Below, one piece after another: positions 52 through 18,395 of a DNA stretch of 20,000 bases (its first letter is position 1; every line of letters starts with the position of its first letter). A program made the position numbers and the translations under genes. The notes under the pieces were generated by a model. That model had not been told where the DNA came from. It saw nothing but the letters and a program-made list of their open reading frames with translations, and ran no database searches. This DNA is from Albugo candida (Eukaryota): the NCBI GenBank assembly GCA_040437565.1, contig JBDOQK010000062.1, forward strand, positions 179,985 through 199,984, given 5' to 3'.

Positions 52-299
52 GCATTTCAGCTTTTTGATGAGGACGGGAGTGGCAAAATCAACTTACGGG
101 TAAATATCATTAGTGATGTATGATTTTATTGTCATGCTTTGCAACAATGTAGAAAATGAGACGAGTAGCAAAAGAGCTTGGCGAAACATTAGACGATGAA
201 GAACTGCAAGCTATGATCGATGAATTTGACGAGAATCAAGATGGTGAAATAGATTTAGATGAATTTAGAGCGATTATGAAAGAATCTGATGACCTATGA
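52..299 (+). CDS. CETN3: Centrin/caltractin (centrin-3/Cdc31-like), 3' two exons (52-99, 153-299); 5' part lies outside the window
   Basis: Splicing out intron 100-152 (GTAAAT...TGTAG, 53 nt) gives [64 protein letters not shown]. This has two EF-hands and the centrin signature [15 protein letters not shown] is typical of the centrin-3 subgroup. Missed by the ORF track. Confidence 0.9.
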
Positions 300-748: not shown

Positions 749-1032
749 ATTGGCCTTACCCTTCGTAAAGTAAAGGCGCATCTGATGTGCACCGATTTAC
801 GCGAGCAATTACTTCATAGTATTGGCAATGAGCTTGTATANNNNNNNNNNNNNNNNNNNNNNNNNNNNNNNNNNNNNNNNNNNNNNNNNNNNNNNNNNNN
901 NNNNNNNNNNNNNNNNNNNNNNNNNNNNNNNNNNNNNNNNATTGGCCTTACCCTTCGTAAAGTAAAGGCGCATCTGATGTGCACCGATTTACGCGAGAAA
1001 TTACCTCATAGTATTGGCAATGAGCTTGTATA
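749..1032. other. Scaffold gap (841-940, 100 N) with duplicated flanks 749-840 = 941-1032
   Basis: 92-bp direct duplication either side of the Ns, with 2 mismatches (806 C/998 A; 813 T/1005 C). Confidence 0.95.
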
Positions 1033-4000
1033 TAGATGCGAAAACGCCTATAATTCACGAAAACGCTTCAGAAAATCACAGAACAAGGTCCCATGAAACG
1101 CGGACGCACGAAATACACGCACAAGCTTCTGATCATTACGCCGCTACCGGATTGCAACAACGCGATACAGCGAGACGTCCGGTATACTCGCGAAGAAATG
1201 CGGTGCGATACAGAGAATCCAGTCCATTATCGAGTGATAACAATTTTGAGCTTTTGGGCAAAGAACCGCATGTTCAAAAATATCTCGTGGCGCGTTCGTA
1301 TCGACAAAATTCGTACTTTGCGACAAAGTTACATCATTTCTCAATCATTTTAACTACAATAATGGCCTGTGCAGTGTGCTTTTATTACCTTCATAACGAT
1401 AAAAGTATCGTGCTTAATCAAGAATGGCCTACTCAGCATGGATTTCGTCTTACTGATCCGAAGCGTTTCTACACTTTTCAAGCCACTGGATGCGAGAGTA
1501 TGATTGGATTTGCAGCATTGACCTATCACACATTTCCAGCCCTTCTCATTCTTGGACTTCCAGGCTCCGGGCTACGTCTATTTGAGCCATTTCATCGTCA
1601 GCAAGGATACCAGGAATCACGTACGCGAGTCAAACTCAAACGAAAACTCATGTTTCAAGTCTGTGAAATGGTTGGCGTGCTTGTTTTCCTCTTCAGCTTT
1701 GTCCTGTTTCTCTTTTTCTGGTACATGGTGTTTCGCCATGCTGCATTTTCATGCCCCATCCTCTCCGTTCATGTGTACTGTTTCCTGGCGTTTCTTTGCT
1801 TTATCGCCATTTTTGTGGAATTATGTCTTTTTGCCCGTTATCGCGAACATATCAAAATGACACTAGGGGCTTTCAAAGAGAGCGATCAAACCGGGAATGT
1901 TCGTCACTTATTCGGTAAAACCGAACGAAAAACTTCAACTTCAACTTCAACGCGCGCACTCATTCACGCATGTCGGAACCGCATTTTTCGAGCGACTCGC
2001 TCGGGTGATTCCGCCGAACTGGAACGTGCGATAGTATACGCGAAGGAACGGCTACCAGATTTTCCTTCGCGGTATTATGGTAACGTGGTCATTTACTTTA
2101 CATTCTTCAGTCTTTCAGAAAAAAATCCAATGCATATGGCAGCTTATAACGGACACGTGGAAGCTATGAAGTTGCTTCTTTCGTATGGTTTTGATGTTAA
2201 CGCGTTCGATAAATTCAGTCGCGTGCGATTTAGTACCGGCGATCTCTTTTGGTACTTTGCGCAGTTTTTTGTATCGAAACCGGTAGACGTCGAGCAAGAT
2301 CAAGCGGTATCGGTTTTAAAAAGCACATTGGTATCACCGTTACATTGTGCAGTAACTTCAGGGCAATCGGAAGCTGTTCGATGGCTTCTACAGCATGGAG
2401 CTGATGCCAACTTGGTTGCGGTATCTTCGTATCGGTCCGAGCGCGTACCTCCGATATTCCTGGCAGACCATCCGGAAATCGTTCGCATCCTTATTGAGCA
2501 TGGGGCTAATATATTAATGGTACCAGATCCGGGGCATATGAATACAGTGACTGTATTACAGATGGCGTATATGCGAAGCGATCGCGCAGTGGAACATGAG
2601 CTGGAAGAACATGGAGGAGATGTAGCTCTGACTCCGTTTCATGCTGCAGCAGCGTTGGATGATGTGGTAGCCGTACGAAAATTTATACGGGATGGAATTG
2701 ATGTGAATTGTCTCGGAGAGCAAGGATATCTTGGTATGAATCGACGGACACCGTTGCATTGGGCTGTGGTGAATAACGCGAAGAATGTGGTTGAGATTCT
2801 ATTGCATTCGAATGCAGATCCCAATTTTCAAGATGTGCGAGGACGGACACCGTTACATTGGGCTGCTCGTCTCAACCACGCGGAAATTATATCGTGTCTT
2901 CTGTCTTATGATGCAAATGTCAACATTGTCGATCAAGATGCGATGACTCCTCTTATTTGTGCTGCATTTGGGAGAAATGTTGGACGAGAATTATTCACAG
3001 ATCTGGTCAACAAGGGAGCTAATATCAACTATGCGTTACCGACTACGGGCGATACGGCTTTACATATTGCAATACGATGTGAAAATAAAAATACAGCATT
3101 GGCAATCTTAGCAAGTGGAGGAATGATTCTCACTCTGAACAGAGAAGGTGTGCGTCCAATTGACTGCACAACATCAACCAAGTTCCAGTATGAAGTCAAA
3201 CAAGCAGCAGGACATCGCGATGTGATGATAAGCTATACACATACTCACATTGAGTTTGCAAAGAAATTACGAAAGTCCCTTGAAGATAATCACGTCACAA
3301 CTTGGCTGGACTTGATGGATCCAAGCGGTATCGGTGGTGGAACTATATGGCGAGCAGAAATTGCTCGTGGGATCACGAATGCTGCTTTGGTGGTCTGCAT
3401 ACTGGCGGAAGACTACGCTGAATCAGACTGGTGCCTAAAAGAGCTGGCACTGGCAAAGCAAGTTGGTACTCCAATATTGGCTGTTTCGACTGAAAATGTC
3501 ACCATCGGTGAAGATCTACAGGTTTACTTATACACTCGCCAGATGATTCCATTTGAGCCAGCCATTATAGCTACCAAACGCAACATACTAAACAGTCGGC
3601 TAATCGAGTATGAATACGATGAGTTTCAGTACGCCAACCAATTCCGCTTGCTACTCGATGGTGTACGCGACGAAATTGAGAAGAATCGAAAGAATGTGTT
3701 GTGTCGGAATATGCGATTGCAACAAAACGCAAATAATTCGACTATCGTGACTATGATGCAGAACAGAATGCCTAACAAGGTACACGTAGATGCATCCATG
3801 GGTTCCAACCAATTTGTATTCATATCACATGGTGATAAGCATGCGCGCTTTGTTGACCGACTAAGTCGAGCACTCACCGAGAAGAAAGTGTTGTGTTATG
3901 TGGATCGATACGTGAGCAACATCTCGGAGAGTGGAGACGTAGCGGATCGCATTCACGCGGCAAAGGAGGCGATCTTGAAATGTTCTTGCTTTGTTGTCAT

Positions 4001-4361
4001 TCTATCGGATAGCACAGTCAACTGTGACTTCTTGACGGATCAGCTCGCGTTTGCTGAAGACAAAGCAAAACCGATTTTTCCAATCATTTTGAATAAGATC
4101 GAAGTTGGCTTGGACAAGAATTACACGTTGGCTCGCACGGAACTGTATCATTTCATTATGAATGGGCTTGGATTCAAATCAAGCTTACAAAACTTGTTAA
4201 CTGGATTGATGACGCACTACATTGCAGCAAATAGTCTCAACGACGACATTTCTGAGATCCTAGGCAAATCATATGCTACGCCAACTCTGATCGGAAACGG
4301 GTTCACGGAATCATATTCCATACTTGAAGAGCATTCGATTCTGGGCGCTTCGTCGGAGTGA
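1020..4361 (+). CDS. Multi-pass membrane protein with about 9 ankyrin repeats and two C-terminal TIR (TIR_2-like) domains, 1113 aa, intronless
   Basis: First ATG at 1020 (the ORF track starts at TTG 1014). Four hydrophobic segments at about 1338-1835. Ankyrin motifs such as NPMHMAAYNGHVEAMKLLLSYGFDVN, SPLHCAV, TPLHWAV, TPLHWAARLNHAEIISCLL and TALHIAI at about 2120-3170. TIR1 DVMISY...WCLKELALA...PILAV at about 3219-3554. TIR2 FVFISHG...FVVILS...FLTDQLAFA...PIFPII at about 3813-4160. Confidence 0.9.
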   Translation: MSLYIDAKTPIIHENASENHRTRSHETRTHEIHAQASDHYAATGLQQRDTARRPVYSRRNAVRYRESSPLSSDNNFELLGKEPHVQKYLVARSYRQNSYFATKLHHFSIILTTIMACAVCFYYLHNDKSIVLNQEWPTQHGFRLTDPKRFYTFQATGCESMIGFAALTYHTFPALLILGLPGSGLRLFEPFHRQQGYQESRTRVKLKRKLMFQVCEMVGVLVFLFSFVLFLFFWYMVFRHAAFSCPILSVHVYCFLAFLCFIAIFVELCLFARYREHIKMTLGAFKESDQTGNVRHLFGKTERKTSTSTSTRALIHACRNRIFRATRSGDSAELERAIVYAKERLPDFPSRYYGNVVIYFTFFSLSEKNPMHMAAYNGHVEAMKLLLSYGFDVNAFDKFSRVRFSTGDLFWYFAQFFVSKPVDVEQDQAVSVLKSTLVSPLHCAVTSGQSEAVRWLLQHGADANLVAVSSYRSERVPPIFLADHPEIVRILIEHGANILMVPDPGHMNTVTVLQMAYMRSDRAVEHELEEHGGDVALTPFHAAAALDDVVAVRKFIRDGIDVNCLGEQGYLGMNRRTPLHWAVVNNAKNVVEILLHSNADPNFQDVRGRTPLHWAARLNHAEIISCLLSYDANVNIVDQDAMTPLICAAFGRNVGRELFTDLVNKGANINYALPTTGDTALHIAIRCENKNTALAILASGGMILTLNREGVRPIDCTTSTKFQYEVKQAAGHRDVMISYTHTHIEFAKKLRKSLEDNHVTTWLDLMDPSGIGGGTIWRAEIARGITNAALVVCILAEDYAESDWCLKELALAKQVGTPILAVSTENVTIGEDLQVYLYTRQMIPFEPAIIATKRNILNSRLIEYEYDEFQYANQFRLLLDGVRDEIEKNRKNVLCRNMRLQQNANNSTIVTMMQNRMPNKVHVDASMGSNQFVFISHGDKHARFVDRLSRALTEKKVLCYVDRYVSNISESGDVADRIHAAKEAILKCSCFVVILSDSTVNCDFLTDQLAFAEDKAKPIFPIILNKIEVGLDKNYTLARTELYHFIMNGLGFKSSLQNLLTGLMTHYIAANSLNDDISEILGKSYATPTLIGNGFTESYSILEEHSILGASSE

Positions 4362-4416: not shown

Positions 4417-4890
4417 GCTTTGTGACGAAGTCGATCGCCGACTTTGCTGGGGTTTACGCCAAATAGTGATACATTCGACGATCATTCACACTACGCTGGA
4501 GATAATCTCGCTCAATGAGGCTTTCGATACGCAATTTGATTAGCTGAGGAGATGGTGTGAATCGTCCGGTCATTTGCCTCACAACTTCAGCAATCAAATG
4601 ACTNNNNNNNNNNNNNNNNNNNNNNNNNNNNNNNNNNNNNNNNNNNNNNNNNNNNNNNNNNNNNNNNNNNNNNNNNNNNNNNNNNNNNNNNNNNNNNNNN
4701 NNNGCTTTGTGACGAAGTCGATCGCCGACTTTGCTGGGGTTTACGCCAAATAGTGATACATTCGACGATCATTCACACTACGCTGGAGATAATCTCGCTC
4801 AATGAGGCTTTCGATACGCAATTTGATTAGCTGAGGAGATGGTGTGAATCGTCCGGTCATTTGCCTCACAACTTCAGCAATCAAATGACT
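4417..4890. other. Scaffold gap (4604-4703) with duplicated flanks 4417-4603 = 4704-4890; duplicates the CUL3 3' end and stop codon
   Basis: 187-bp apparently identical duplication. The CUL3 stop appears at both 4454-4456 and 4741-4743. Confidence 0.95.
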
Positions 4891-7463
4891 ATGTTCCATA
4901 TGTCTTCTTGCCTTCATCACTCGGACAATCACTGCTTCTACCGTACAAAAAAACACAATCAGCGGTTAAGAAAACAGGCAGAGTCAATGGATTGGCATCA
5001 AAATTCGAATCACTGAAAGGATATAAATGCTTTCGATCTTCAGCAACTGTTGCTGGAAGTTGAGTTTGATCAATTTGCTTCTCATCGCCACCGTAGACAG
5101 CATTCAGCATCAAAGATGTCTCTTTCTGCGAAATCAATGGAATACGGACACGATAGAGTTTGCTTTGATACTCTTCGTTCAATGTGAATACATCATCAAG
5201 ATCAATTCGCTTCCCTTTGGAGCTTTTTAACAAAATTCGAAACTTCGGGGTGCAAAGCGAAATCAAATGGCGTTTCAGCTCATGTTCGTGAATCTGCGTT
5301 TGCTCCAGAATCTGCTTGAACGACCAACATGTGTCCGAATTGAACATCAACAGAATATAAGCCTGATAGGTCGACACATTGAATTCATGGATTCTGTCTC
5401 CGTTGTTTCTCTGAAAGCGTGCTCGAATATCCACAGAGCCTAATTGAGTCGCCCACGTCAGCTTCCGGCCATTATGACGTGACACATAGAAGTTTTCAAA
5501 GCTTTCAATCAGTTGCTTTAGCTCAGCTGGCACATCTGAAATAGATGGAGGAGAAATCGGCCAGAAACCACTCGTAAGGATGTGAACATGGAGCTGTGCA
5601 GAAGTCGTATCCATATCGGCCGCTTTATCCGAAATTGGGCGTTTTGATTGTGCCTTACGATACATTCCCATGATATCTTTTGACACGTTGATGTCTTTAA
5701 ACATTCCCTCCAACTTGGAAGTGAATTGATATCCACATTCTTCTCTCAATTTGGTTATAACCATTCGTTCTGCTTCATCACTGGCGCCACGTTCCCTCAA
5801 CAATCGCCTGGCCAGAAGATTCTTATAATATTCTTCGAAAACGTCTTTATCTTGGAGATATCGAAACAATGCGATCACCTCACTCACTTGGTTCTTTAAT
5901 TCCTCTTCATATCGAGCTTTGGAACGTAATAACTCATCGAGGTAATGAGCCAAGTAGCCGGAGCAAATGCTGTTGATATTCAGAAACGCTTCANNNNNNN
6001 NNNNNNNNNNNNNNNNNNNNNNNNNNNNNNNNNNNNNNNNNNNNNNNNNNNNNNNNNNNNNNNNNNNNNNNNNNNNNNNNNNNNNNNNNNNNNGATTCTT
6101 ATAATATTCTTCGAAAACGTCTTTATCTTGGAGATATCGAAACAATGCGATCACCTCACACACTTGGTTCTTTAATTCCTCTTCATATCGAGCTTTGGAA
6201 CGCAATAACTCATCGAGGTAATGAGCCAAGTAGCCGGAGCAAATGCTGTTGATATTCAGAAACGCTTCAAAGCCTCGTTTGATACTTTTATGGAATTCTG
6301 GATCTTCTTGGAAACATCGTTGCCAGAAAGTGATAAATGGCTTTCGAAGATTCAAGATCTGGTCCACAAATTGTCTTGAATCTACAGCGGTTTCCGGCTT
6401 CAATTGAGCTTGGACGTACTGCTCTCCATTATGCTTTATGTAGCCATACACACTTTCGGTCATATTCTTTAGTGTCTGTGGAATTCGACGAAAGAGGAGG
6501 TACATCCGTCGCAACGAGTCCACGTTTCCATCACGGAACATGATCCAACACCCCGAATTGACTTGATCGGTCAGAAGTTTCGCCTGTTTCTCAATCAATT
6601 CCGTCTCGACAATCCTTTTCAGCTTGTGATCGGTTGTGGAGTTTAGATAGTAAGATACCCGGAGAGCTTCTTCTTGGATCCGTTGATCGGCTTTGATGAG
6701 ATACTCCCCACAAGGTGCATGATCCAAGTATCTCTGGGCTTCTTGGCGGTAGAACTCCAATGTCTCAGCAAGAAAGAATTTCTCGAACTCTTCTTCGTAC
6801 ACGCAGTTGGAATGGATTCCAAGCATGACCAACATACAAAGCGTGTTTTTCATTGAAGCTCGGTCAATCAGTTCACCGTGACGTTCACATGCAATATTCT
6901 TCAGCAGAAGTGATCGAAGCCGGCTTTGGATCCTTCCATTTCGAACAACAACTGCGAGAAAGATTAACAAAGAGCGCTGATAGATTGGAGTTTTTCGTTT
7001 TTGTGGCACGTAATTATGCTCCTACATTGACAAAATGTCATAAAATTGAAGAGTGTTGAGAACGCGTACCATATACATCAACACATCACGAATCATGGTG
7101 ATGATCACTTGGTAATCATTCCATTTCTGGTTCAGAAATGCCAGTAGATTTTCATTTGGAGTCAATGCGACCTCATCGGCCAACTCTTCGCACTGTTCTG
7201 TGATCACTTGGACAACTCCATTGTAAAGCAAGTCTCCGTGCTTTTGCAGAACAAGATGGTATGAAGACCTGTAACATCAATAATGAATTGCAAACTCTCT
7301 CCGTATCGTCTCCTTACCGAAAAAGTTCCTCAAAGGAAAGCTGACTCGCATTATGAGCGAAAATTTCACGCATTGCGCCCCGAAGAAACTCCCAAGTCTC
7401 TTGAGCGAGCGACGCGTCCATCCCCACTCGCTGGCGGTACGGTTTGATCACTAATTTTTTCAT
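4741..7463 (-). CDS. CUL3: Cullin-3; exons 7463-7318, 7268-7070, 7021-5025, 4942-4741; about 755 aa after collapsing the 276-nt gap artefact
   Basis: N-terminus TWEFLRGAMREIFAHNASQLSFEELFRSSYHLVLQKHG, MIRDVLMYM, FRYLQDKDVFEEYYKNLLARRLL, ECGYQFTSKLEGMFKD, and C-terminal IVRVMKARR...IESLIERDYLQR...YHYLA*. GT-AG introns 7317-7269 (49 nt) and 7069-7022 (48 nt) plus AT-AC intron 5024-4943 give a continuous frame. Confidence 0.95.
4943..5024 (-). other. U12-type (minor spliceosome) AT-AC intron, 82 nt, phase 2, in CUL3
   Basis: Minus strand: CAT TT|ATATCCTTT (5024-5016) ... TTTTCTTAAC branch site (4974-4965) ... TGTAC|G GTA GAA. Removal gives EDRKHLVEAVIVRVMKARR, colinear with the conserved cullin motif. 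Confidence 0.92.
5818..6269. other. Scaffold gap (5994-6093) with duplicated flanks 5818-5993 = 6094-6269, inside CUL3 exon 3
   Basis: 176-bp duplication with 2 mismatches: 5884 T/6160 A (Ser/Cys) and 5927 T/6203 C (synonymous Leu). Confidence 0.95.
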
Positions 7464-7570: not shown

Positions 7571-9275
7571 ATGGAAATTATTATATGCTCTCGATCTGGG
7601 AAGCCGATTTTTCAGTGTCAATTGCGTCAAAAGCAGCTATGCAACACGGCTACAGTGGATGGTGAATCAGTGGAGAGTCGCTACTCTTCCGCTGCATTCG
7701 TTTCTTCGATGCAAGGGCTTTTAGATTTTGTTTTTTGTACTCAAAAGCAGAAGCTACAAGTCATCGAGACAGAGACTTTTGTGGCTCGATTTATTACCAC
7801 AGATGAATTGAGCTTTGCAGTACTGCTCACAAAGAGATGTTTTGAGATCACGCTGACATGGTCATGCGTTGAGCGTTTATTTGATCTCCTACATGGCTTT
7901 ATTCAGCTCATTCTGACTCGAAAAGGCCTCGAAATTCTCAAAAGCAGCCCTGAGTACGATCTACGTAGTCTTCTGACCAACACAGAAAATATCATGGAGC
8001 GAATTGCCTATCTCTGGTTCACATCCATCACAGTGCGAGTGAAAAGTCTCGGATTTGAGAGTTTACGACTTGCGTCAAAGTTGCGATCACGCATCACAGA
8101 AGCACTGACGCCACGCCATTCATCGGCGGAGGAATCATTCCATTTCCTTTGTGGGCTACTACTCAGTGATGAGAAACTTGTTTGTATCGTACATCCACGA
8201 AAAGATCTTTTTCACATGAGTCTCGATGGTACTCAGCTTCTTTTACTGTGATCTTTAGCAATTAATTTGTTCTTGCGCTTTAGATCTGACGCTACTGGTC
8301 ACGTTCGTCTACCACAGCAAAAGCTTCCGAAATTCGGAATCATGGACACCTGTTTGCCTCCCATCTTTCAATCCAAAGTATGTCCCGCCTCCATCTACAC
8401 TCCCCATACGCTTTGAATCATGAGTGCTGAACTAGCGGATTCCTACACGCTTATGTATTCTTTTTCGACAAAGATACATCGCTTGTCTTATTGAGCAGTT
8501 GTCCCCTTCCATCGCAATTTCATGTTTTTCAGGCTGAGCGACACCGAATATCTTCTCTGTTGGATGAAATGGACGCATTCAAGGCTCTTGACAATTCCAT
8601 GCAAGAATATCAAACATGGTGGTTGCAAGAGCAAATGCGGCAGAATGGGTTGCTCCATTTTGTGTACAAAAACGAGCAAACCGGTGAATGTGTCGTATCG
8701 CCTTGGATGTCCCCCTTTGAGTCACTTGGTGAGACATTTAATATAACGCATCTCGATCGCTATACTAAACTCCACCAACGCATGGGTTTCAAAGAAGGTG
8801 CGCCACAAGAATTACAGAAAAGTCAATTGATCGGGAAAGCCGTTGGTTTGGATGCATCCAACGCACATTCCATGGTGTTGAATGATCCACATACGTTAGT
8901 TGTAGGCTTACAAAGTCAGGACAGTCGTGTGTACGCNNNNNNNNNNNNNNNNNNNNNNNNNNNNNNNNNNNNNNNNNNNNNNNNNNNNNNNNNNNNNNNN
9001 NNNNNNNNNNNNNNNNNNNNNNNNNNNNNNNNNNNNCACAAGAATTACAGAAAAGTCAATTGATCGGGAAAGCCGTTGGTTTGGATGCATCCAACGCACA
9101 TTTCATGGTGTTGAATGATCCACATACGTTAGTTGTAGGCTTACAAAGTCAGGACAGTCGTGTGTACGCGACATTCGATGCTCTGTACGACATCTCAGAT
9201 GCCGAGAATGTTTGTAAGGATCTTTGTCTTCGACTTAAGCAGGACATTATGTTGATGTCTGCCACATTAATTTAA
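7571..9275 (+). CDS. MON1: Vacuolar fusion protein Mon1/SAND (Rab7 GEF subunit); exons 7571-8228, 8284-8377, 8436-9275; about 452 aa after collapsing the gap
   Basis: IICSRSGKPIF, YDLRSLL, and the spliced hallmark SESWTPVCLPSFNPNGFLHAYV. GT-AG introns 8229-8283 (55 nt) and 8378-8435 (58 nt) keep the frame. Confidence 0.9.
8804..9169. other. Scaffold gap (8937-9036) with duplicated flanks 8804-8936 = 9037-9169, inside the last MON1 exon
   Basis: 133-bp duplication with 1 mismatch, 8870 C/9103 T (Ser/Phe). This explains the apparent frameshift between ORFs 8491-9063 and 9060-9275. Confidence 0.95.
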
Positions 9276-9784: not shown

Positions 9785-10720
9785 ATGAATTCGACCGGGT
9801 CAGACTATGGAACCAATGAACAAAGTCTTTCCACTGCAACATCTGATAAAGATCGGTACGAACAATGCACACAGTACGAGCATTCGGAGCTACAAGAATC
9901 AGCATGCACATTGAGGTCAAAGAAGCGAAGATTGATTCGCAACATGGAGGTGGCACAATGGAATGAAGCTGATGATGGATACCATTCTAGCACGTCTTCT
10001 GATGCGACACATATAAATACCCTTACCAATATGTCCAATTTGGAACACTTGGCCGTTGCATCAAATGCATTTATTGCAACACAGAGCTTTCAAGAAGAGG
10101 AAGAAAAAGAATATGCAACTGGAGAACAATCGATGGGAAGGGCATTTCGACTGGAAAAGGGCGCTGCTACGGCTCAATACATCACAGTCGATATGCTGCG
10201 ACCGCATTTTGACAAGCCGCTAAATGATGTTGCAAAGATTTTTGGGATTTGCTCGACTCTGATGAAAAAAGTCTGTCGCCGCTTACAAATTCGCAAATGG
10301 CCATATCGTCAAATCTTATCGTTACGGAGGAGCGTCGTGTCGATGAAGAAGCAAGTTGATTACTTTGACGGTGAGCGGAAAGTGGTCTACAGCGATCAAA
10401 TGAATAAGCAACAAAGGAAGTTGGATCATTTGTTGCGTACGGGGAATGCGCTGGAGGAAAGTGGTGGATGCTCACGACTTACCAATAGTGAACAGTATCG
10501 ACTTCCACGGTATATTGAAACCACAACTCACTCCGTAAACCAAGAAAGTCTCACTCATCAGTCAGCTTATGGAACCGCATCCGCTTTACTGAACAATGAG
10601 AGTGAGGTGCGGCCAATATTACCTTCAATTTCGTACTTGCTTAACAGACAGCATCACGATAACAGCAGTGATGAACCGGATTCGGTACCGTTTCCATTAC
10701 ATAGTGATCATACATTTTAG
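9785..10720 (+). CDS. RWP-RK domain transcription factor, 311 aa
   Basis: ITVDMLRPHFDKPLNDVAKIFGICSTLMKKVCRRLQIRKWPYRQILSL (about 10181-10325) matches the RWP-RK domain pattern and is followed by a short coiled coil. Confidence 0.9.
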   Translation: MNSTGSDYGTNEQSLSTATSDKDRYEQCTQYEHSELQESACTLRSKKRRLIRNMEVAQWNEADDGYHSSTSSDATHINTLTNMSNLEHLAVASNAFIATQSFQEEEEKEYATGEQSMGRAFRLEKGAATAQYITVDMLRPHFDKPLNDVAKIFGICSTLMKKVCRRLQIRKWPYRQILSLRRSVVSMKKQVDYFDGERKVVYSDQMNKQQRKLDHLLRTGNALEESGGCSRLTNSEQYRLPRYIETTTHSVNQESLTHQSAYGTASALLNNESEVRPILPSISYLLNRQHHDNSSDEPDSVPFPLHSDHTF

Positions 10721-12349: not shown

Positions 12350-13275
12350 ATGAACATTACCACAGCTTACAAAAATAGCTTTAGTGTGATTCCAATGCGT
12401 TCCAAAAGAAATGTATGCGCTGTTCGCAAAGGTAAGCTATCTATTCCCCATGCATTCGCCACAGTATCACTAACCGCACACTTGTAGTAATCTTTCTTGG
12501 CGATCGTAATGTTGGCAAAACAAGCCTCCTGTTATCCATGGTGAGCGGGAAAGGAGTTGTGGACGCGGCCAAATCAGAACTCATCGGAACTGATTATTTG
12601 TATAAAGTCGCCGAGTGTAACCAACAGGTGCCTATCAAAGTGCAATTGTGGGATTCTGCGGGTCAGGATCGACATGGACCAGAAGGATTGAGTCGAACAT
12701 ATCTGCGTCACGCTCACGGTGCAGTTCTTGTGTATGATGTGACGGATCGACAGTCAATGCTCAAGGTATTTCAGTGGACCAGCACTTTACTCCGAGAGTA
12801 TCAGAATCAGCCTTTTACGCTCCTTCTTGTTGCCAATAAGACAGACTGTCCCCGATGTAAACGCATTATAACCACAGAGGAGGGACAACGAATTGCTTAT
12901 GGTATTGGAGCACAGTATGTTGAGTGTTCGGCCACGAATGCTGCTCTCACACAAAACGCATTTAACCGATTAGCCGAAAATTTGAATTCTTCTCACATTT
13001 GGAGACAAAACGGATTGAGAGTGGTTACGGCTTTGTGGCTCGCTTCGATAAATAGCAAAGTGTGTCCATTGGGCTCTTTCCATACACGTTCGCAATCCAA
13101 TTTGAGAGACGACATGCCGGTACCATACGCTCGAAGGCATTCGATTAATTGTCCGGAAATGGTGACCAAAGTGCCTTCTCGGTTGATGAAGTTTGCCCGT
13201 ACGTCTCCACCAAAAGTATTAGGTACAAATTTATTCTCGTTTTTTCGGCATGATTACTGCAATTTATTGTCGTAA
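12350..13275 (+). CDS. Divergent Rab-like small GTPase, 289 aa; exons 12350-12431, 12488-13275
   Basis: Intron 12432-12487 (GTAAGC...CACTAAC...TAG, 56 nt) restores KVIFLGDRNVGKTS (P-loop). Also IGTDY, VQLWDSAGQD, VLVYDVT, LLVANKTD and YVECSAT. Confidence 0.85.
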
Positions 13276-14043: not shown

Positions 14044-14519
14044 TTCTGCCAGTTAGACATTTGCTTCGTACTTGTCAAGTTGATTTGGGAACCCTTCGGC
14101 CACACTGACCATGAGTCCACAGAAACTCGCGGTCAAAGGTACGACGCACACGTTATTGTCTTACTCAACAGTTTAATAAGTTGCGTTTTAGTGTTAAAGC
14201 TTCAAGGGATCGGGTCAGATGGAACTAAAGGNNNNNNNNNNNNNNNNNNNNNNNNNNNNNNNNNNNNNNNNNNNNNNNNNNNNNNNNNNNNNNNNNNNNN
14301 NNNNNNNNNNNNNNNNNNNNNNNNNNNNNNNTTCTGCCAGTTAGACATTTGCTTCGTACTTGTCAAGTTGATTTGGGAACCCTTCGGCCACACTGACCAT
14401 GAGTCCACAGAAACTCGCGGTCAAAGGTACGACGCACACGTTATTGTCTTACTCAACAGTTTAATAAGTTGCGTTTTAGTGTTAAAGCTTCAAGGGATCG
14501 GGTCAGATGGAACTAAAGG
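14044..14519. other. Scaffold gap (14232-14331) with duplicated flanks 14044-14231 = 14332-14519; duplicates exons 1-2 of the C2 gene
   Basis: 188-bp apparently identical duplication. Confidence 0.95.
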
Positions 14520-17105: not shown

Positions 17106-18395
17106 CTATATAAAACCTTCATCCAAAATAGTTGCCTCCCTTGATACTGACTCATTTTCTGCGCTTGCTGCTGACTGAATTCTTTCCTCGCTATCCAGAG
17201 CAAGAGGATCACTTTCTTTCCGTATGATTGGTGTTTGATGTATCCATTGTGCTTCATTCTTTTGTGCGCGCTGTATTGTTACATACTTTTTTTCCGTTTT
17301 GGTCACATCTTCCCGTTTTAAGAAGTATTTGACGATCTCCACGAAGCCCAAATAAGAAGCATACATGACAGCCGAAAGTTGCAGCTGCTGTACGGGGGAG
17401 CGCATGTTATCGAATGATTGTGGTGCGATATCTTTGTAGATTACGTTCTCTTGCTTTCCCACTAACTCAGCCGGTGCTAGAGGCTTGACCAACTTTTCAG
17501 GATCGATGTTTCCAGTGTTTTTGTCCTCAGTAAGCGTCTCCACTTCTTCGCTATCTTGGCTTTTGTTGACGGTAGTCGCTGCAGAGATCGAACTGAATGG
17601 GAGAGCCGTCATGAACGAAGCAGTATCCAGCGGCAACGACACTTCCATACAAGCGTTGATATCACCATCATTCTGATCGATCTGCTCAACAATCTCCATA
17701 AACCGCTCAATGCTCCCCATACTATGACACACTGCAAAATGATATGGGTATCGTGTCAAATCTCCATGCACACCAAGCGCTCGAATTGGTACTAAGTTTT
17801 GACCATTTTCTTCTCGATACTTAATTGAATCATAAGCTATTTCAGAAGATAATGTCAGAGTTCCCGCCTCATTCAGGCAGCTTGTTGGAAGTTCATTCCG
17901 ACTACCTATTAACGTTGATGCAAACTCTGGTTGCAACTGTAGTTTGGGTCGATCTTGAAAATCGACTTCAAGTGCTGCTCCTCTTCCGATGAGTCCGTGA
18001 CGTTTACAGAAGCGAAAGTACCAGCCATACGACGCCTTGAATGGACCCAAATTGTGTTTCTGTGAGATCGATTTCGCTTTTTCTTGCACTAAAGAGGATG
18101 ATACTTTGATTTTTCTCTCCTTCAAGTCCATAATCCATGCAAGTAATTCATCTTCAAATTCGGCGTGCTTGGCGATACCTCCACGCCGACGATGATCGCG
18201 TTCTCGTAAACTTCCTTGTAGATATCTTTTCTTTATATCAAGACTGCGCTTCAATAAGCGAGAAATAGCAGCTGCACTAACTCCATAATCACGAGCACAT
18301 TTTGAATTTGTCATTTCAGAATTATTCTCAAAACATTCGATTATTTCAATGCGCTCGCGATCAGTAAGTCGTTTACCGGAGCCTCGTTTTCCCAT
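17106..18395 (-). CDS. CENP-B/pogo(Tc5)-type double helix-turn-helix DNA-binding protein lacking a DDE domain, with degenerate ankyrin-like repeats, 429 aa
   Basis: RLTDRERIEII...CARDYGVSAAAISRLLK (psq-type HTH) and EFEDELLAWI...VSSSLVQEKAK...FKASYGWYFRFCKRHGL (CENP-B HTH). No DDE catalytic motif is seen. Ankyrin-like SAVMYASYLGFVEIVKYFLK. Confidence 0.85.
   Translation of the reverse strand: MGKRGSGKRLTDRERIEIIECFENNSEMTNSKCARDYGVSAAAISRLLKRSLDIKKRYLQGSLRERDHRRRGGIAKHAEFEDELLAWIMDLKERKIKVSSSLVQEKAKSISQKHNLGPFKASYGWYFRFCKRHGLIGRGAALEVDFQDRPKLQLQPEFASTLIGSRNELPTSCLNEAGTLTLSSEIAYDSIKYREENGQNLVPIRALGVHGDLTRYPYHFAVCHSMGSIERFMEIVEQIDQNDGDINACMEVSLPLDTASFMTALPFSSISAATTVNKSQDSEEVETLTEDKNTGNIDPEKLVKPLAPAELVGKQENVIYKDIAPQSFDNMRSPVQQLQLSAVMYASYLGFVEIVKYFLKREDVTKTEKKYVTIQRAQKNEAQWIHQTPIIRKESDPLALDSEERIQSAASAENESVSREATILDEGFI

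Follow-up and report, generated by a model that had tools for sequence, protein, structure and literature searches.

Does an intronless gene of Albugo candida that joins membrane helices, ankyrin repeats and two TIR domains encode an NAD+-cleaving immune or signalling receptor, as a sequence-only reading of the surrounding 20,000-nucleotide stretch of DNA (the window) had proposed, or a protein of another kind?

Gene structure and domain order

On the plus strand of the window, positions 1020-4361 form one unbroken ORF of 1113 codons, with the ATG at 1020, the TGA at 4359-4361 and an upstream in-frame TGA at 975-977, and none of the five 100-N gaps in the window falls inside it. One gap adjoins the gene, between the two copies (749-840 and 941-1032, 98%) of a 92-nt direct duplicate that includes the start codon, and is regarded as part of an assembly artefact (Table 1). 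The translation matches P0002, a 1113-aa protein deposited for Albugo candida, without a difference over its full length (100% identity, 100% length), so the intronless model agrees with the public annotation, and the genome, previously described as oomycete-like, is indeed that of an oomycete. Given the length of the ORF and the E-values of the domain matches, chance is excluded as their origin. The order of four hydrophobic helices, ankyrin array and two Pfam TIR_2 domains within one intronless ORF is likewise real, as seen from the ORF itself, Pfam, Kyte-Doolittle analysis and AlphaFold2.

Table 1. Positions in the window of the gene, its encoded regions and the adjoining artefact
Feature	Residues	Position	Strand	Remarks
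Assembly artefact adjoining gene		749..1032	.	100-N gap 841-940 between two copies of 92-nt direct duplicate
Whole gene		1020..4361	+	Single-exon ORF, 1113 codons + TGA
N-terminal region, predicted cytosolic	1-94	1020..1301	+	Poorly conserved; mean pairwise identity 0.26
TM helix 1	99-124	1314..1391	+	KD peak 1.76; helix 10-35 of AF2 fragment model
Loop 1, predicted extracytosolic	125-156	1392..1487	+	Median K+R 3
TM helix 2	157-183	1488..1568	+	KD peak 1.62; helices 68-80, 83-94 of model
Loop 2, basic, highly conserved, predicted cytosolic	184-209	1569..1646	+	Median K+R 8
TM helix 3	210-238	1647..1733	+	KD peak 2.66; helix 121-149 of model
Loop 3, short, predicted extracytosolic	239-247	1734..1760	+	Median K+R 1
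TM helix 4	248-272	1761..1835	+	KD peak 2.73; helix 159-192 of model
Juxtamembrane motif	273-292	1836..1895	+	Consensus RFREHxKMQLGAFKESDQTG
Ankyrin-repeat array	310-731	1947..3212	+	About 9 repeats plus caps
TIR1, predicted catalytic	733-888	3216..3683	+	TIR_2 66.1 bits; SARM1 TIR Z 16.2
TIR1 active-site codons	Asp764; Ser802; Glu808	3309-3311; 3423-3425; 3441-3443	+	Cat1 alignment
Inter-TIR linker	889-927	3684..3800	+	Long-helix end, then disordered, poorly conserved; identity 0.20
TIR2, predicted non-catalytic	928-1072	3801..4235	+	TIR_2 36.8 bits; Gln1008 at 4041-4043
C-terminal tail	1073-1113	4236..4358	+	Poorly conserved, identity 0.25

The membrane module and the ankyrin array

The four hydrophobic strings singled out in the sequence-only reading (residues 107-124, 161-180, 217-238 and 247-272) coincide with the only four Kyte-Doolittle peaks of at least 1.5 in the whole protein and, in an AlphaFold2 model of the 4-TM fragment that scores as confident (pLDDT 87.8), with four long helices. 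No Kyte-Doolittle peak occurs before residue 103, and neither a signal peptide nor a hydrophobic segment is found at the N-terminus. Over 54 sequences, consisting of the query and 53 of the 120 listed homologues, loop 2 has a median K+R count of 8 and the segment after TM helix 4 one of 5, as opposed to 3 and 1 for loops 1 and 3, and the predicted cytosolic location of the ankyrin array and the TIR domains, which had already been put forward, fits the positive-inside rule. The designation as a receptor is not supported, since the predicted outside loops are short (medians 32 and 9 residues) and hold few conserved positions.

Within the N-terminal half, conservation is highest in the juxtamembrane motif, with R275, H277, M280, L282, G283, A284, E287 and G292 each present in all 54 sequences, and TM helix 3 opens with Q213-x-C215-E216, whose three named residues are equally invariant (54/54 each). 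Loop 2 is predicted to form a β-hairpin (strands 102-104 and 117-119 of the fragment model) and conserves G184, R186, F188, F191, R193, K205 and R208, while TM helix 2 is kinked at Pro173, a residue kept in 53 of the 54. Cys158, directly after loop 1 (53/54), and Cys245 in loop 3 (54/54) are both on the predicted outer side of the membrane and may possibly form a disulfide pair. The 4-TM module is rare, a search of 1.84 billion representative proteins yielding no more than 33 relatives, and all 13 of these that carry organism names are from oomycetes. No convincing structural relatives of its model were found: Foldseek gave no match at E <=0.001, and the matches to LRRC8A (Z 9.1, the best), a de novo Ca channel (Z 8.3), connexins (Z 7.0-7.8) and pannexin-2 (Z 7.3) all lie below the level of about 13 that the structure tool itself considers meaningful for helical bundles.

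As for the ankyrin array, the original count of about nine repeats is reasonable, in that nine units plus caps can be read by eye, but only six are called independently, as separately significant stretches of the Pfam Ank match (E 1.2e-44; Ank_2 E 1.2e-41), and Ank-family matches are confined to about residues 365-670. Ankyrin and DARPin sequences in the PDB match with E down to 2e-70, and the first ankyrin helix pair is visible in the AlphaFold2 fragment model. In agreement with the earlier claim that LRR and NB-ARC domains are missing, the Pfam domain search of the protein found neither of these and no SAM or death-fold domain, and no oligomerisation element was identified in the protein.

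Two unequal TIR domains

Both TIR domains stand, since TIR_2 (PF13676, cut-off 28 bits) matches each when scored alone and the AlphaFold2 models of both match solved TIR structures with Z about 16. The top structural match of TIR1 is the TIR domain of SARM1 (rmsd 2.1, 128 residues aligned). A phmmer search of PDB sequences returned no match of TIR1 to SARM1, the relatedness being too low, and only one match at all, a weak one to the bacterial NADase Cat1 (E 7.9e-6), in which Cat1 D33, S68 and E74 pair with D764, S802 and E808 of TIR1. These Cat1 residues line the NADase site, and alanine mutants at the three positions abolish growth arrest in vivo, as reported for Cat1 (PMC12162218). In the family, E808 and S802 are found in 54/54 sequences and D764 in 53, with a gap in the remaining one, and the glycine-rich loop DPSGIGGG (residues 767-774) is invariant. 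TIR1 also has an SxWCLxEL-type motif, which resembles plant TIRs. Mean pairwise identity over 22 sequences is highest in TIR1 (0.74), followed by the ankyrin array (0.57), TIR2 (0.49) and the TM part (0.41). Conservation this high would be no less expected of a scaffold that serves only protein-protein contacts. The PADLOC profile matches of TIR1 are modest, PDC-S66 being the best (1.1e-8), with SAVED-TIR at 4.6e-6 and ThsB weak, and the Pfam ThsB_TIR score of 20.0 bits is under the cut-off of 21.2.

The sequence-only reading implied NAD+ cleavage for both TIR domains without distinction. For TIR1 this is credible as far as sequence can tell, and TIR1 may be called a candidate NAD+-cleaving domain, but the two are not equivalent, as the catalytic position of TIR2 is Gln in 53 of the 54 sequences, a gap in one and never Glu. 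Even the catalytic Glu is needed without being enough, since according to a preprint purified Dictyostelium TirB and TirD processed no NAD+, whereas TirC did (10.64898/2026.04.30.722052). When TIR1 and TIR2 are aligned by hhalign (probability 95.8%, E 7.6e-9) E808 lies opposite Q1008, and judged by sequence TIR2 is an old, diverged internal duplicate of TIR1. It has near-invariant residues of its own (G938, R977, C988, D1007 and A1012), and the TIR of SPARTA TIR-APAZ superposes on it with Z 15.7 (rmsd 2.8, 128 aligned). The linker falls below pLDDT 50 over model residues 186-201 and is greatly expanded in 'long' paralogues (alignment columns 1140-1345), and the C-terminal tail does not have the terminal Arg-Met/Ile found in most relatives.

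Distribution of the family

The family was found throughout the oomycetes: 89 of the 120 listed homologues have organism names, and all 89 are oomycetes, from 13 genera, with TIR_2 present in 115 of the 120. The obligate biotrophs Albugo candida, Bremia, Plasmopara and Hyaloperonospora have at least two copies each among the listed homologues. In a FastTree phylogeny (53 rows) the Albugo, Pythium-type and Peronosporales members fall into three or more clades of paralogues, Albugo being represented in two, and two further clades are made up of Saprolegniales. The family is thus divided into several old clades of paralogues across the oomycetes and is so far known only from them. The earlier statement that no characterised receptor family has this architecture is borne out, but the architecture has not gone wholly unnoticed: literature searches turned up only a one-sentence mention, in a review, of oomycete "uncharacterized ankyrin repeat-TIR proteins" (Lapin et al. 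2022, PMC9153377). These are almost certainly the present family, although the passages concerned do not mention the TM domain, the tandem TIR, the Glu/Gln asymmetry or the paralogue structure (PMC9153377).

Proposed function and alternatives

We lean, with little better than even confidence, towards a TIR enzyme that is tethered to a membrane, has TIR1 as its catalytic domain and TIR2 in a regulatory or structural role, and serves core signalling or a cell-fate function. It would be a polytopic membrane protein with the N-terminus, the ankyrin array and both TIR domains facing the cytosol, fixed to the membrane by the oomycete-specific 4-TM bundle, the conserved cytosolic face of which probably couples to the cytosolic domains. 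TIR1 would be the working part and would act as an NAD(P)+ glycohydrolase or cyclase of the TIR type. Its active site, made up of Asp764, Ser802, Glu808 and the glycine-rich BB-type loop, is complete and has hardly changed in evolution, and by analogy with other TIR enzymes TIR1 may be active only once TIR domains are brought together. TIR2, keeping the fold and a conserved pocket with Gln for the catalytic Glu, would be a non-catalytic partner, either promoting intramolecular assembly, inhibiting TIR1 or providing a nucleotide-binding regulatory site; the 'partner' and 'inhibitor' roles are without structural support, since the relative arrangement of the TIR domains is undefined in the AlphaFold2 model (pTM 0.54, linker disordered). 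The ankyrin solenoid would likely be a protein-binding or autoinhibitory element. Ancient, slowly evolving paralogues across the sampled oomycetes, obligate biotrophs included, suggest a core signalling or cell-fate function and not a diversifying pathogen sensor, and this evolutionary pattern is also the sole basis on which we modestly favour a messenger made locally from NAD over a bulk depletion of NAD+. Among protists, Dictyostelium TirC, described in the preprint as an active TIR NADase with a TM tether (10.64898/2026.04.30.722052), provides a precedent for such an enzyme.

The catalytic evidence for TIR1 is shared by an executor of cell death or abortive defence, similar to SARM1 or bacterial TIR defence proteins, which we consider unlikely; in this reading the protein would be held inactive at the membrane until it is released by proteolysis or triggered by stress or by infection, for instance with oomycete viruses, and would then assemble, drain NAD+ and kill the cell or hypha. 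TIR1 has its best structural match in SARM1, itself a solenoid-plus-TIR protein (ARM-SAM-SAM-TIR), the nearest PADLOC profiles are those of defence TIRs, and TirC is reported in the preprint to be toxic once its TM tether is removed (10.64898/2026.04.30.722052). An executor is however in poor agreement with several ancient paralogues whose catalytic domains have hardly changed and which lack a variable sensor part, with the lack of NB-ARC, LRR, SAM and death-fold domains, and with neighbours in the window (a cullin, an EF-hand exon, and longin-domain, RWP-RK and Ras ORFs) that show no signs of a defence locus. Less likely again is a non-enzymatic scaffold in which both TIRs are homotypic interaction modules that nucleate a membrane signalling complex, as in TLR/MyD88. 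TIR1 does match non-enzymatic animal TIRs (Hydra TRR-2 Z 16.2, MyD88 Z 14.7, IL-1RAcPb Z 14.5), TIR2 has lost the catalytic Glu, and obligate interaction modules typically show such extreme conservation of their surfaces, but the Asp, Ser and Glu of TIR1 at the Cat1 NADase-site positions are invariant or nearly so. Furthermore, adaptor-type animal TIRs to our knowledge generally have no catalytic Glu, and we know of no partner TIR adaptors in oomycetes.

Database names of homologues bring in two other possibilities. Several homologues carry the label 'Transient receptor potential Ca2+ channel (TRP-CC) family', and a TM pore gated by the ankyrin or TIR domains, possibly, as an enzyme-channel fusion, by the product of the TIR itself, would be in keeping with the 4-TM channel or channel-associated bundles among the best sub-threshold structural matches. 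Such a channel is nevertheless very improbable and the label unsupported, given that no channel family, TRP and Ion_trans included, was matched at E up to 1 for the whole protein or up to 10 for the TM part, that those structural matches stay below the meaningful level, and that there are four helices as opposed to six and no pore loop. In TRP proteins the ankyrin array is N-terminal of the TM domain, whereas here it lies C-terminal; ankyrin repeats and membrane helices are what the two share, and the label most likely stems from ankyrin-repeat similarity. The Hyaloperonospora orthologue P0025 is labelled 'RxLR effector candidate', and bacterial pathogens do deliver TIR effectors, but a secreted or host-translocated effector turning TIR activity on the plant is extremely improbable, and this label too is unsupported, in view of the four TM helices, the missing N-terminal signal peptide, a slow sequence evolution unlike that of effectors and equal conservation in Saprolegnia, Achlya, Thraustotheca, Aphanomyces and Pythium oligandrum, which are not known to be plant biotrophs.

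Relation to known TIR systems

Like SARM1/TIR-1, the Albugo protein has a helical-repeat solenoid before a superposable TIR with Glu at the catalytic position (on the TIR1 side from the Cat1 alignment), and is highly conserved and not diversifying; SARM1 is anchored at mitochondria, so that membrane association is common to both. It differs in having no SAM domain, ankyrin in place of ARM repeats, a 4-TM bundle in place of the N-terminal targeting segment and a second, Glu-less TIR. In TirC, likewise a protist TIR enzyme, an N-terminal TM tether restrains a toxic NADase, but it is described in the preprint as having one predicted TM helix, no ankyrin array and a single TIR, and is placed in a CAP12/Pycsar-like clade recently acquired from bacteria (10.64898/2026.04.30.722052). 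The Albugo family, on the other hand, combines a 4-TM bundle and about nine ankyrin repeats with two TIRs and goes back far within the oomycetes. Bacterial defence TIRs are represented by Cat1 of type III CRISPR, sharing Asp, Ser and Glu, by SPARTA TIR-APAZ, the best structural match of TIR2, and weakly by ThsB and SAVED-TIR profiles, whereas the Albugo protein has no CARF, SAVED, APAZ/Argonaute or ThsA partner and is eukaryotic, membrane-embedded and ankyrin-linked. In the plant pair RPS4/RRS1 one signalling-competent TIR is combined with an incompetent one, and TIR2 superposes on both (RPS4 Z 14.9, RRS1 Z 14.1), as TIR1 does on the TIRs of RUN1 (Z 15.1), RPV1 and RPP1 (Z 13.9-15.1 for the three). 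The Albugo TIRs are however in a single chain and not in two proteins, NB-ARC and LRR are missing, and we know of no EDS1-type pathway in oomycetes.

What is new here is the distribution of the family, the rarity of its 4-TM module, the conservation and active-site match of TIR1 and the Glu to Gln replacement in TIR2. The immune flavour of the original proposal does not agree with the slow evolution, which has kept the mean pairwise identity of TIR1 at 74% between orders and paralogues, or with the several copies in the four obligate biotrophs. Because of these two features the family looks more like a conserved component of oomycete cell physiology than a variable immune receptor.

Gene structure and genomic surroundings

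The TIR gene is contained in a single frame, and its translation is identical from end to end to a deposited Albugo candida protein of 1113 residues, labelled merely 'unnamed protein product / TIR domain-containing protein', so that the sequence-only reading was correct in calling the ORF intronless and the genome oomycete-like. Lengthening the ORF upstream is ruled out by an in-frame TGA at 975-977, and a chimeric gene model is likewise rejected, since over 100 homologues have their domains in the same order. Of the ten sequencing runs that contain this stretch, none is recorded as RNA. None of the five 100-N scaffold gaps in the window lies within the ORF, and the 92-nt direct duplicate bracketing the gap at 841-940 (749-840 and 941-1032, 98% identity) takes in the start codon and leaves the ORF unaffected. 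The gap in the cullin gene is likewise bracketed by a duplicated coding stretch, with the same peptide on either side of the X run, and such duplicates look like an assembly effect, left by overlapping contig ends or by haplotypes that were not merged, and not like biology.

Features of the window, with strand and supporting match
Feature	Position	Strand	Remarks
EF-hand protein, last exon	156-296	+	EF-hand_7, E 2.7e-9; directly upstream of the TIR gene
TIR gene (4TM-ANK-TIR1-TIR2)	1020-4361	+	1113 codons; ATG 1020, TGA 4359-4361
Cullin gene	4889-7009	-	Convergent neighbour; Pfam Cullin E 8e-91, C-terminal 333 residues; broken by assembly gap
Fuz/MON1/HPS1 first longin domain ORF	7571-8251	+	E 1.2e-7; ordinary housekeeping neighbour
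RWP-RK-domain ORF	9785-10720	+	About 5 kb downstream of the TIR gene
Ras-family GTPase domain ORF	12538-13275	+	E 1.5e-26; ordinary housekeeping neighbour
429-aa ORF, Tc5-transposase DNA-binding HTH domain	17106-18395	-	E 9.8e-15
100-N scaffold gaps (five)	841-940, 4604-4703, 5994-6093, 8937-9036, 14232-14331		

Domains like those of two neighbours occur in gene models of the family. The name 'Ankyrin repeat and EF-hand domain-containing protein 1' is given to some members in other genomes, and the Lagenidium model P0122, a homologue of 2513 aa, contains both EF-hands and LRRs; the EF-hand-bearing models are probably merged adjacent genes. The Pythium insidiosum member P0031 (1259 aa) has a Pfam match to RWP-RK, with its TM domain beginning at residue 387, and could represent either a merged gene model or a conserved linkage of both genes. 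The HTH-containing ORF at the far end of the window is either what is left of a pogo/Tc5-like transposon or a gene that has been domesticated.

Domain architecture

The four hydrophobic strings picked out earlier are located at residues 107-124, 161-180, 217-238 and 247-272, and are the sole Kyte-Doolittle peaks of at least 1.5 across the whole protein. They are followed by an ankyrin array (Pfam Ank E 1.2e-44, with six stretches significant separately; Ank_2 E 1.2e-41), in which nine units and their caps can be counted by eye between residues 310 and 731, and thereafter by two TIR_2 domains, which score 66.1 bits (TIR1, residues 733-888) and 36.8 bits (TIR2, residues 928-1072) when taken singly, against a cut-off of 28. 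A Pfam scan at E up to 1 gave no NB-ARC, LRR, SAM, ARM, death-fold or ion-channel family, in agreement with the reported absence of NB-ARC and LRR. As read from alignments A1-A3 (A1 comprising 22 family members) and from residue counts over a 54-row alignment of the query and 53 homologues, the family is defined by a 4-TM module, a juxtamembrane REHxKMxLGAFxE motif, the ankyrin repeats, a TIR1 with Glu and a TIR2 with Gln, and the A. candida protein has them all. Homologues bear conflicting names in their sources ('Transient receptor potential Ca2 channel', 'RxLR effector candidate protein', 'mitochondrial chaperone BCS1-B', 'Ankyrin-2' and 'Transmembrane protein'), and the domain content found supports none of the five.

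The two TIR domains

The AlphaFold2 model of residues 722-1075, made from 54 rows consisting of the query fragment and 53 of 120 listed homologues chosen for diversity, has a mean pLDDT of 84.3 and a pTM of just 0.54, the latter owing to a disordered linker (model residues 186-201) that leaves the mutual orientation of TIR1 and TIR2 undefined. When compared by VIA-align over Foldseek's top 1000 chains, TIR1 (model residues 8-166) matches the human SARM1 TIR with Z 16.2 and an rmsd of 2.1 Å over 128 residues, the Hydra TRR-2 TIR with Z 16.2 and the grapevine RUN1 TIR with Z 15.1. TIR2 (model residues 207-351) matches SPARTA TIR-APAZ TIRs with Z 15.7 (rmsd 2.8, 128 residues), RPS4 with Z 14.9, SARM1 with Z 14.2 and also, at Z 14.6, the nucleoside 2-deoxyribosyltransferases, which have a TIR-like fold in common. 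Since both domains pass the TIR_2 cut-off and their best matches to solved TIRs reach Z 15.7-16.2, the notion that the C-terminal regions might not fold as TIRs can be dismissed. The two are furthermore homologous to each other, as their columns align in hhalign with a probability of 95.8% and E 7.6e-9 over 131 columns, placing Glu808 of TIR1 opposite Gln1008 of TIR2. The earlier claim of two TIRs holds for the fold but not for their implied equivalence, the catalytic Glu being replaced by Gln in TIR2.

By sequence, the only solved structure in the PDB to match TIR1 is the type III CRISPR NADase Cat1 (E 7.9e-6), of which Asp33, Ser68 and Glu74 are aligned on Asp764, Ser802 and Glu808. According to the available text of PMC12162218, these Cat1 residues line the NADase site and alanine mutants of them abolish growth arrest in vivo. 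Glu808 and Ser802 are present in 54/54 rows of the alignment and Asp764 in 53/54, with one gap, and the loop DPSGIGGG (residues 767-774) is almost invariant in the same rows. Of the two domains, only TIR1 combines a pocket Asp and Ser with a catalytic Glu where helix alpha-C begins, and its pocket is, as predicted from these residues, complete, frozen and of the NADase type. In TIR2, position 1008 is Gln in 53 of the 54 rows and a gap in the remaining one, so that a catalytic Glu is found in no second TIR of the alignment, and phmmer against the PDB gave no match beyond chance-level eIF3c rows (E above 0.5). Judging from near-invariant residues particular to it (G938, R977, C988, D1007 and A1012) and from a mean pairwise identity of 49%, TIR2 is not decaying.

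The membrane domain

AlphaFold2 gave a confident model of residues 90-345 from a 54-row alignment (pLDDT 87.8, pTM 0.75; Val90, a GTG codon, was rendered as Met at position 1 of the fragment), with helices at residues 99-124, 157-183 (kinked at Pro173), 210-238 and 248-281, a small beta-hairpin between helices 2 and 3 and a first ankyrin-like helix pair after helix 4. Basic residues are amassed in loop 2 and after helix 4 (median K+R of 8 and 5, against 3 in loop 1 and 1 in loop 3), which predicts an N-in/C-in topology. The protein is accordingly a polytopic membrane protein with a predicted cytosolic ANK-TIR-TIR part, as the sequence-only reading had proposed from the even number of helices. 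Conservation is highest on the predicted cytosolic face, that is in loop 2, Q213-x-C215-E216 and the juxtamembrane motif (273-292), whereas the loops outside have median lengths of just 32 and 9 residues and few conserved positions, which makes a classical ligand-binding ectodomain less likely. Cys158 (53/54) and Cys245 (54/54) are both predicted to be on the outer side and could form a disulfide. Members of clade A from Phytophthora and the downy mildews carry an acidic insertion of 30-40 residues (…GNGGMDLDDDEED…) in cytosolic loop 2 (A1 columns ~340-370), which those members of A1 that belong to Albugo, Pythium and the Saprolegniales lack.

The membrane part has no family in Pfam or PADLOC, no Foldseek match at E <=0.001 for the model and no usable match in the ESM Atlas. 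Exhaustive VIA-align comparison returned LRRC8A (Z 9.1), Fc-epsilon-RI beta (9.0), PRPH2 (8.5), synaptophysin (8.3) and connexins (7.0-7.8), all of them four-helix membrane bundles of a generic kind and short of the Z of about 13 that the tool itself sets for helical bundles; any kinship with the 4-TM superfamilies (LRRC8/connexin/pannexin, MS4A, tetraspanin and synaptophysin) is at most tentative.

Distribution and evolution

The full-length search gave 520 matches at E <=0.001, and among the best 120 of these, 115 have TIR_2, the remaining five being short, while all 89 that carry organism names are from oomycetes (Albugo, Pythium, Globisporangium, Phytophthora, Plasmopara, Peronospora, Hyaloperonospora, Bremia, Peronosclerospora, Saprolegnia, Achlya, Thraustotheca and Aphanomyces). 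A phmmer search of 1.84 billion representative proteins with the TM part (residues 90-300) gave just 33 matches at E <=0.001; of the 19 looked up, 13 carry organism names, all of them oomycetes, Lagenidium included, and 6 carry none. Eight of the 33 were scanned with Pfam, whereby ankyrin repeats were found in seven, TIR_2 in three and another membrane family in none. A word-index search for short TIR1 relatives likewise gave 42 matches, of which the 15 named are all oomycetes, a result that leaves room for distant bacterial relatives given the limited sensitivity of such an index.

Mean pairwise identity over 22 sequences is 0.74 for TIR1, 0.57 for ANK, 0.49 for TIR2 and 0.41 for the TM part, and 0.20-0.26 for the N-terminus, linker and tail. 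The paralogue clades rest on a FastTree tree of 53 rows with midpoint root and SH-like support. Clade A comprises 26 rows, with the query as a basal branch whose length (0.76 vs a median of 0.18) makes its exact position unsure; clade B holds a second Albugo candida gene (homologue P0093) and an A. laibachii protein; a 'long' clade contains proteins of 1450-1650 aa with much enlarged inter-TIR and C-terminal regions; and the Saprolegniales members form two clades. This layout implies at least one duplication older than the split of Albugo from Pythium/Phytophthora. Each of the four obligate biotrophs among the best 120 of the 520 matches keeps at least two copies. Arg-Met or Arg-Ile is found at the C-terminus of 14 of the 22 members of A1, preceded in clade A by a conserved acidic 'RNFESIS..ED' patch, and may serve in sorting or in binding; the A. 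candida query ends in GASSE and has no such terminus.

Relation to known TIR proteins

No functional study of the oomycete 4TM-ANK-TIR-TIR family was found in the literature, which is consistent with the earlier impression that the architecture belongs to no characterised family. Already on record are the protein sequences, their TIR and ANK annotations and, in the available text of a 2022 review (Lapin et al., PMC9153377), a brief remark on oomycete ankyrin repeat-TIR proteins. We found no earlier description of the 4-TM module, seen solely in oomycetes here, of the fixed live/dead TIR pair or of the paralogue structure. A TIR atlas preprint (10.64898/2026.04.30.722052) surveys EukProt, which is among the source databases of the homologues, and its main text makes no mention of oomycetes. 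The same preprint, as far as its available text goes, describes Dictyostelium TirC as an active TIR NADase tethered by a TM helix; the likeness extends to the tether and to the predicted enzyme, but TirC has one helix and one TIR from another clade, whereas the query has four helices and two TIRs and is not a member. Tandem TIRs as such are reported from mollusc Tolls (PMC4929906, available text), and PMC10732462, in its available text, has STING as its topic and not the present family.

Other assignments fail on domain content. A Toll-like receptor is excluded by the lack of an LRR ectodomain, by four TM helices instead of one, by short outer loops and by two TIRs instead of one, and a plant TNL/NLR by the fact that neither NB-ARC (or NACHT) nor LRR appears in the Pfam scan. 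Thoeris ThsB is likewise rejected, since PF08937 scores 20.0 bits, below its cut-off of 21.2, and since ThsB is a stand-alone TIR partnered with ThsA whereas the query is a multidomain eukaryotic protein; the best E-values against the PADLOC ThsB models are 3e-4 for TIR1 and 6.5e-5 for TIR2. The family is real, well conserved and uncharacterised, and constitutes a new architectural variant among TIR enzymes, with enzymatic activity predicted, but not a categorically new entity.

Proposed function

On balance we slightly favor the reading that the protein is a membrane-tethered core signalling or cell-fate enzyme with a predicted catalytic TIR1 and a non-catalytic TIR2. By analogy with other TIR enzymes, TIR1 would cleave NAD(P)+ once TIRs are gathered, and TIR2 would be its non-catalytic partner, acting either in intramolecular assembly or inhibition or as a nucleotide-binding regulatory site. 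A precedent for an inactive TIR is that of RRS1, which is paired with RPS4. The ANK solenoid would be a binding or autoinhibitory element, the counterpart of the ARM repeats that have this role in SARM1, and the 4-TM bundle would place the enzyme and perhaps govern its activity. As to the outcome, we hold the production of a messenger to be somewhat more probable than the depletion of NAD+. The slow change, the lack of a variable sensor, the several old paralogues and the retention of at least two copies in each of the four biotrophs suit an enzyme of core signalling or cell fate more than a diversifying immune receptor.

SARM1 combines a solenoid with a TIR NADase, and the query is predicted to work alike, but the ARM repeats and tandem SAM domains before the TIR of SARM1 have no counterpart among the Pfam matches of the query down to E 1, ANK being found instead, so that the query is not a member. 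A death executor of the SARM1 type is an explanation that we regard as unlikely. A non-enzymatic scaffold would suit the Gln of TIR2 and is hard to square with the conservation of the TIR1 pocket, and seems rather improbable. That the protein is a channel would agree with one of the names given to homologues; a TRP cation channel (TCDB 1.A.4) is however rejected, since there is no Ion_trans/TRP match in Pfam and since TRP channels carry their ankyrin repeats N-terminal to an ion-transport domain that has six TM helices and a pore loop, whereas those of the query are C-terminal to its four helices, and we consider a channel of any kind very unlikely. A secreted effector, as the RxLR label would have it, is scarcely credible for a protein with four membrane helices.

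A bolder and doubtful variant of the enzymatic reading is a lineage-specific, non-immune TIR enzyme making an NAD-derived messenger (ADPR, a cADPR isomer or an NAADP-like compound) at an oomycete membrane, in which the Gln pocket of TIR2 would be a nucleotide sensor or feedback site and the paralogues would be split by membrane or life stage, for instance in zoospore Ca2+ signalling. In its boldest version, the 4-TM bundle would be a conductance gated by the TIR product, i.e. an enzyme-channel fusion.

In bacteria, plants and animals alike, TIR enzymes have a central place in immunity and cell death, and to our knowledge nothing is known of those of stramenopiles. The family described here extends across the sampled oomycetes, including major crop and fish pathogens, and offers a clean and testable way into the TIR chemistry of this major pathogen lineage. 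The predicted natural and covalent pair of a 'live' and a 'dead' TIR may help in studying how TIR active sites are assembled and controlled, and the joining of TIRs to a polytopic membrane domain raises the question of whether a membrane signal controls the predicted NAD+ cleavage. The analysis furthermore puts right the labels TRP channel, RxLR effector and BCS1-B chaperone, which are misleading and are being passed on among oomycete genome annotations. Finally, as its membrane module was seen solely in oomycetes in these searches, the family is a candidate lineage-specific vulnerability and, if the messenger-enzyme reading is true, would be a selective target for oomycete control.
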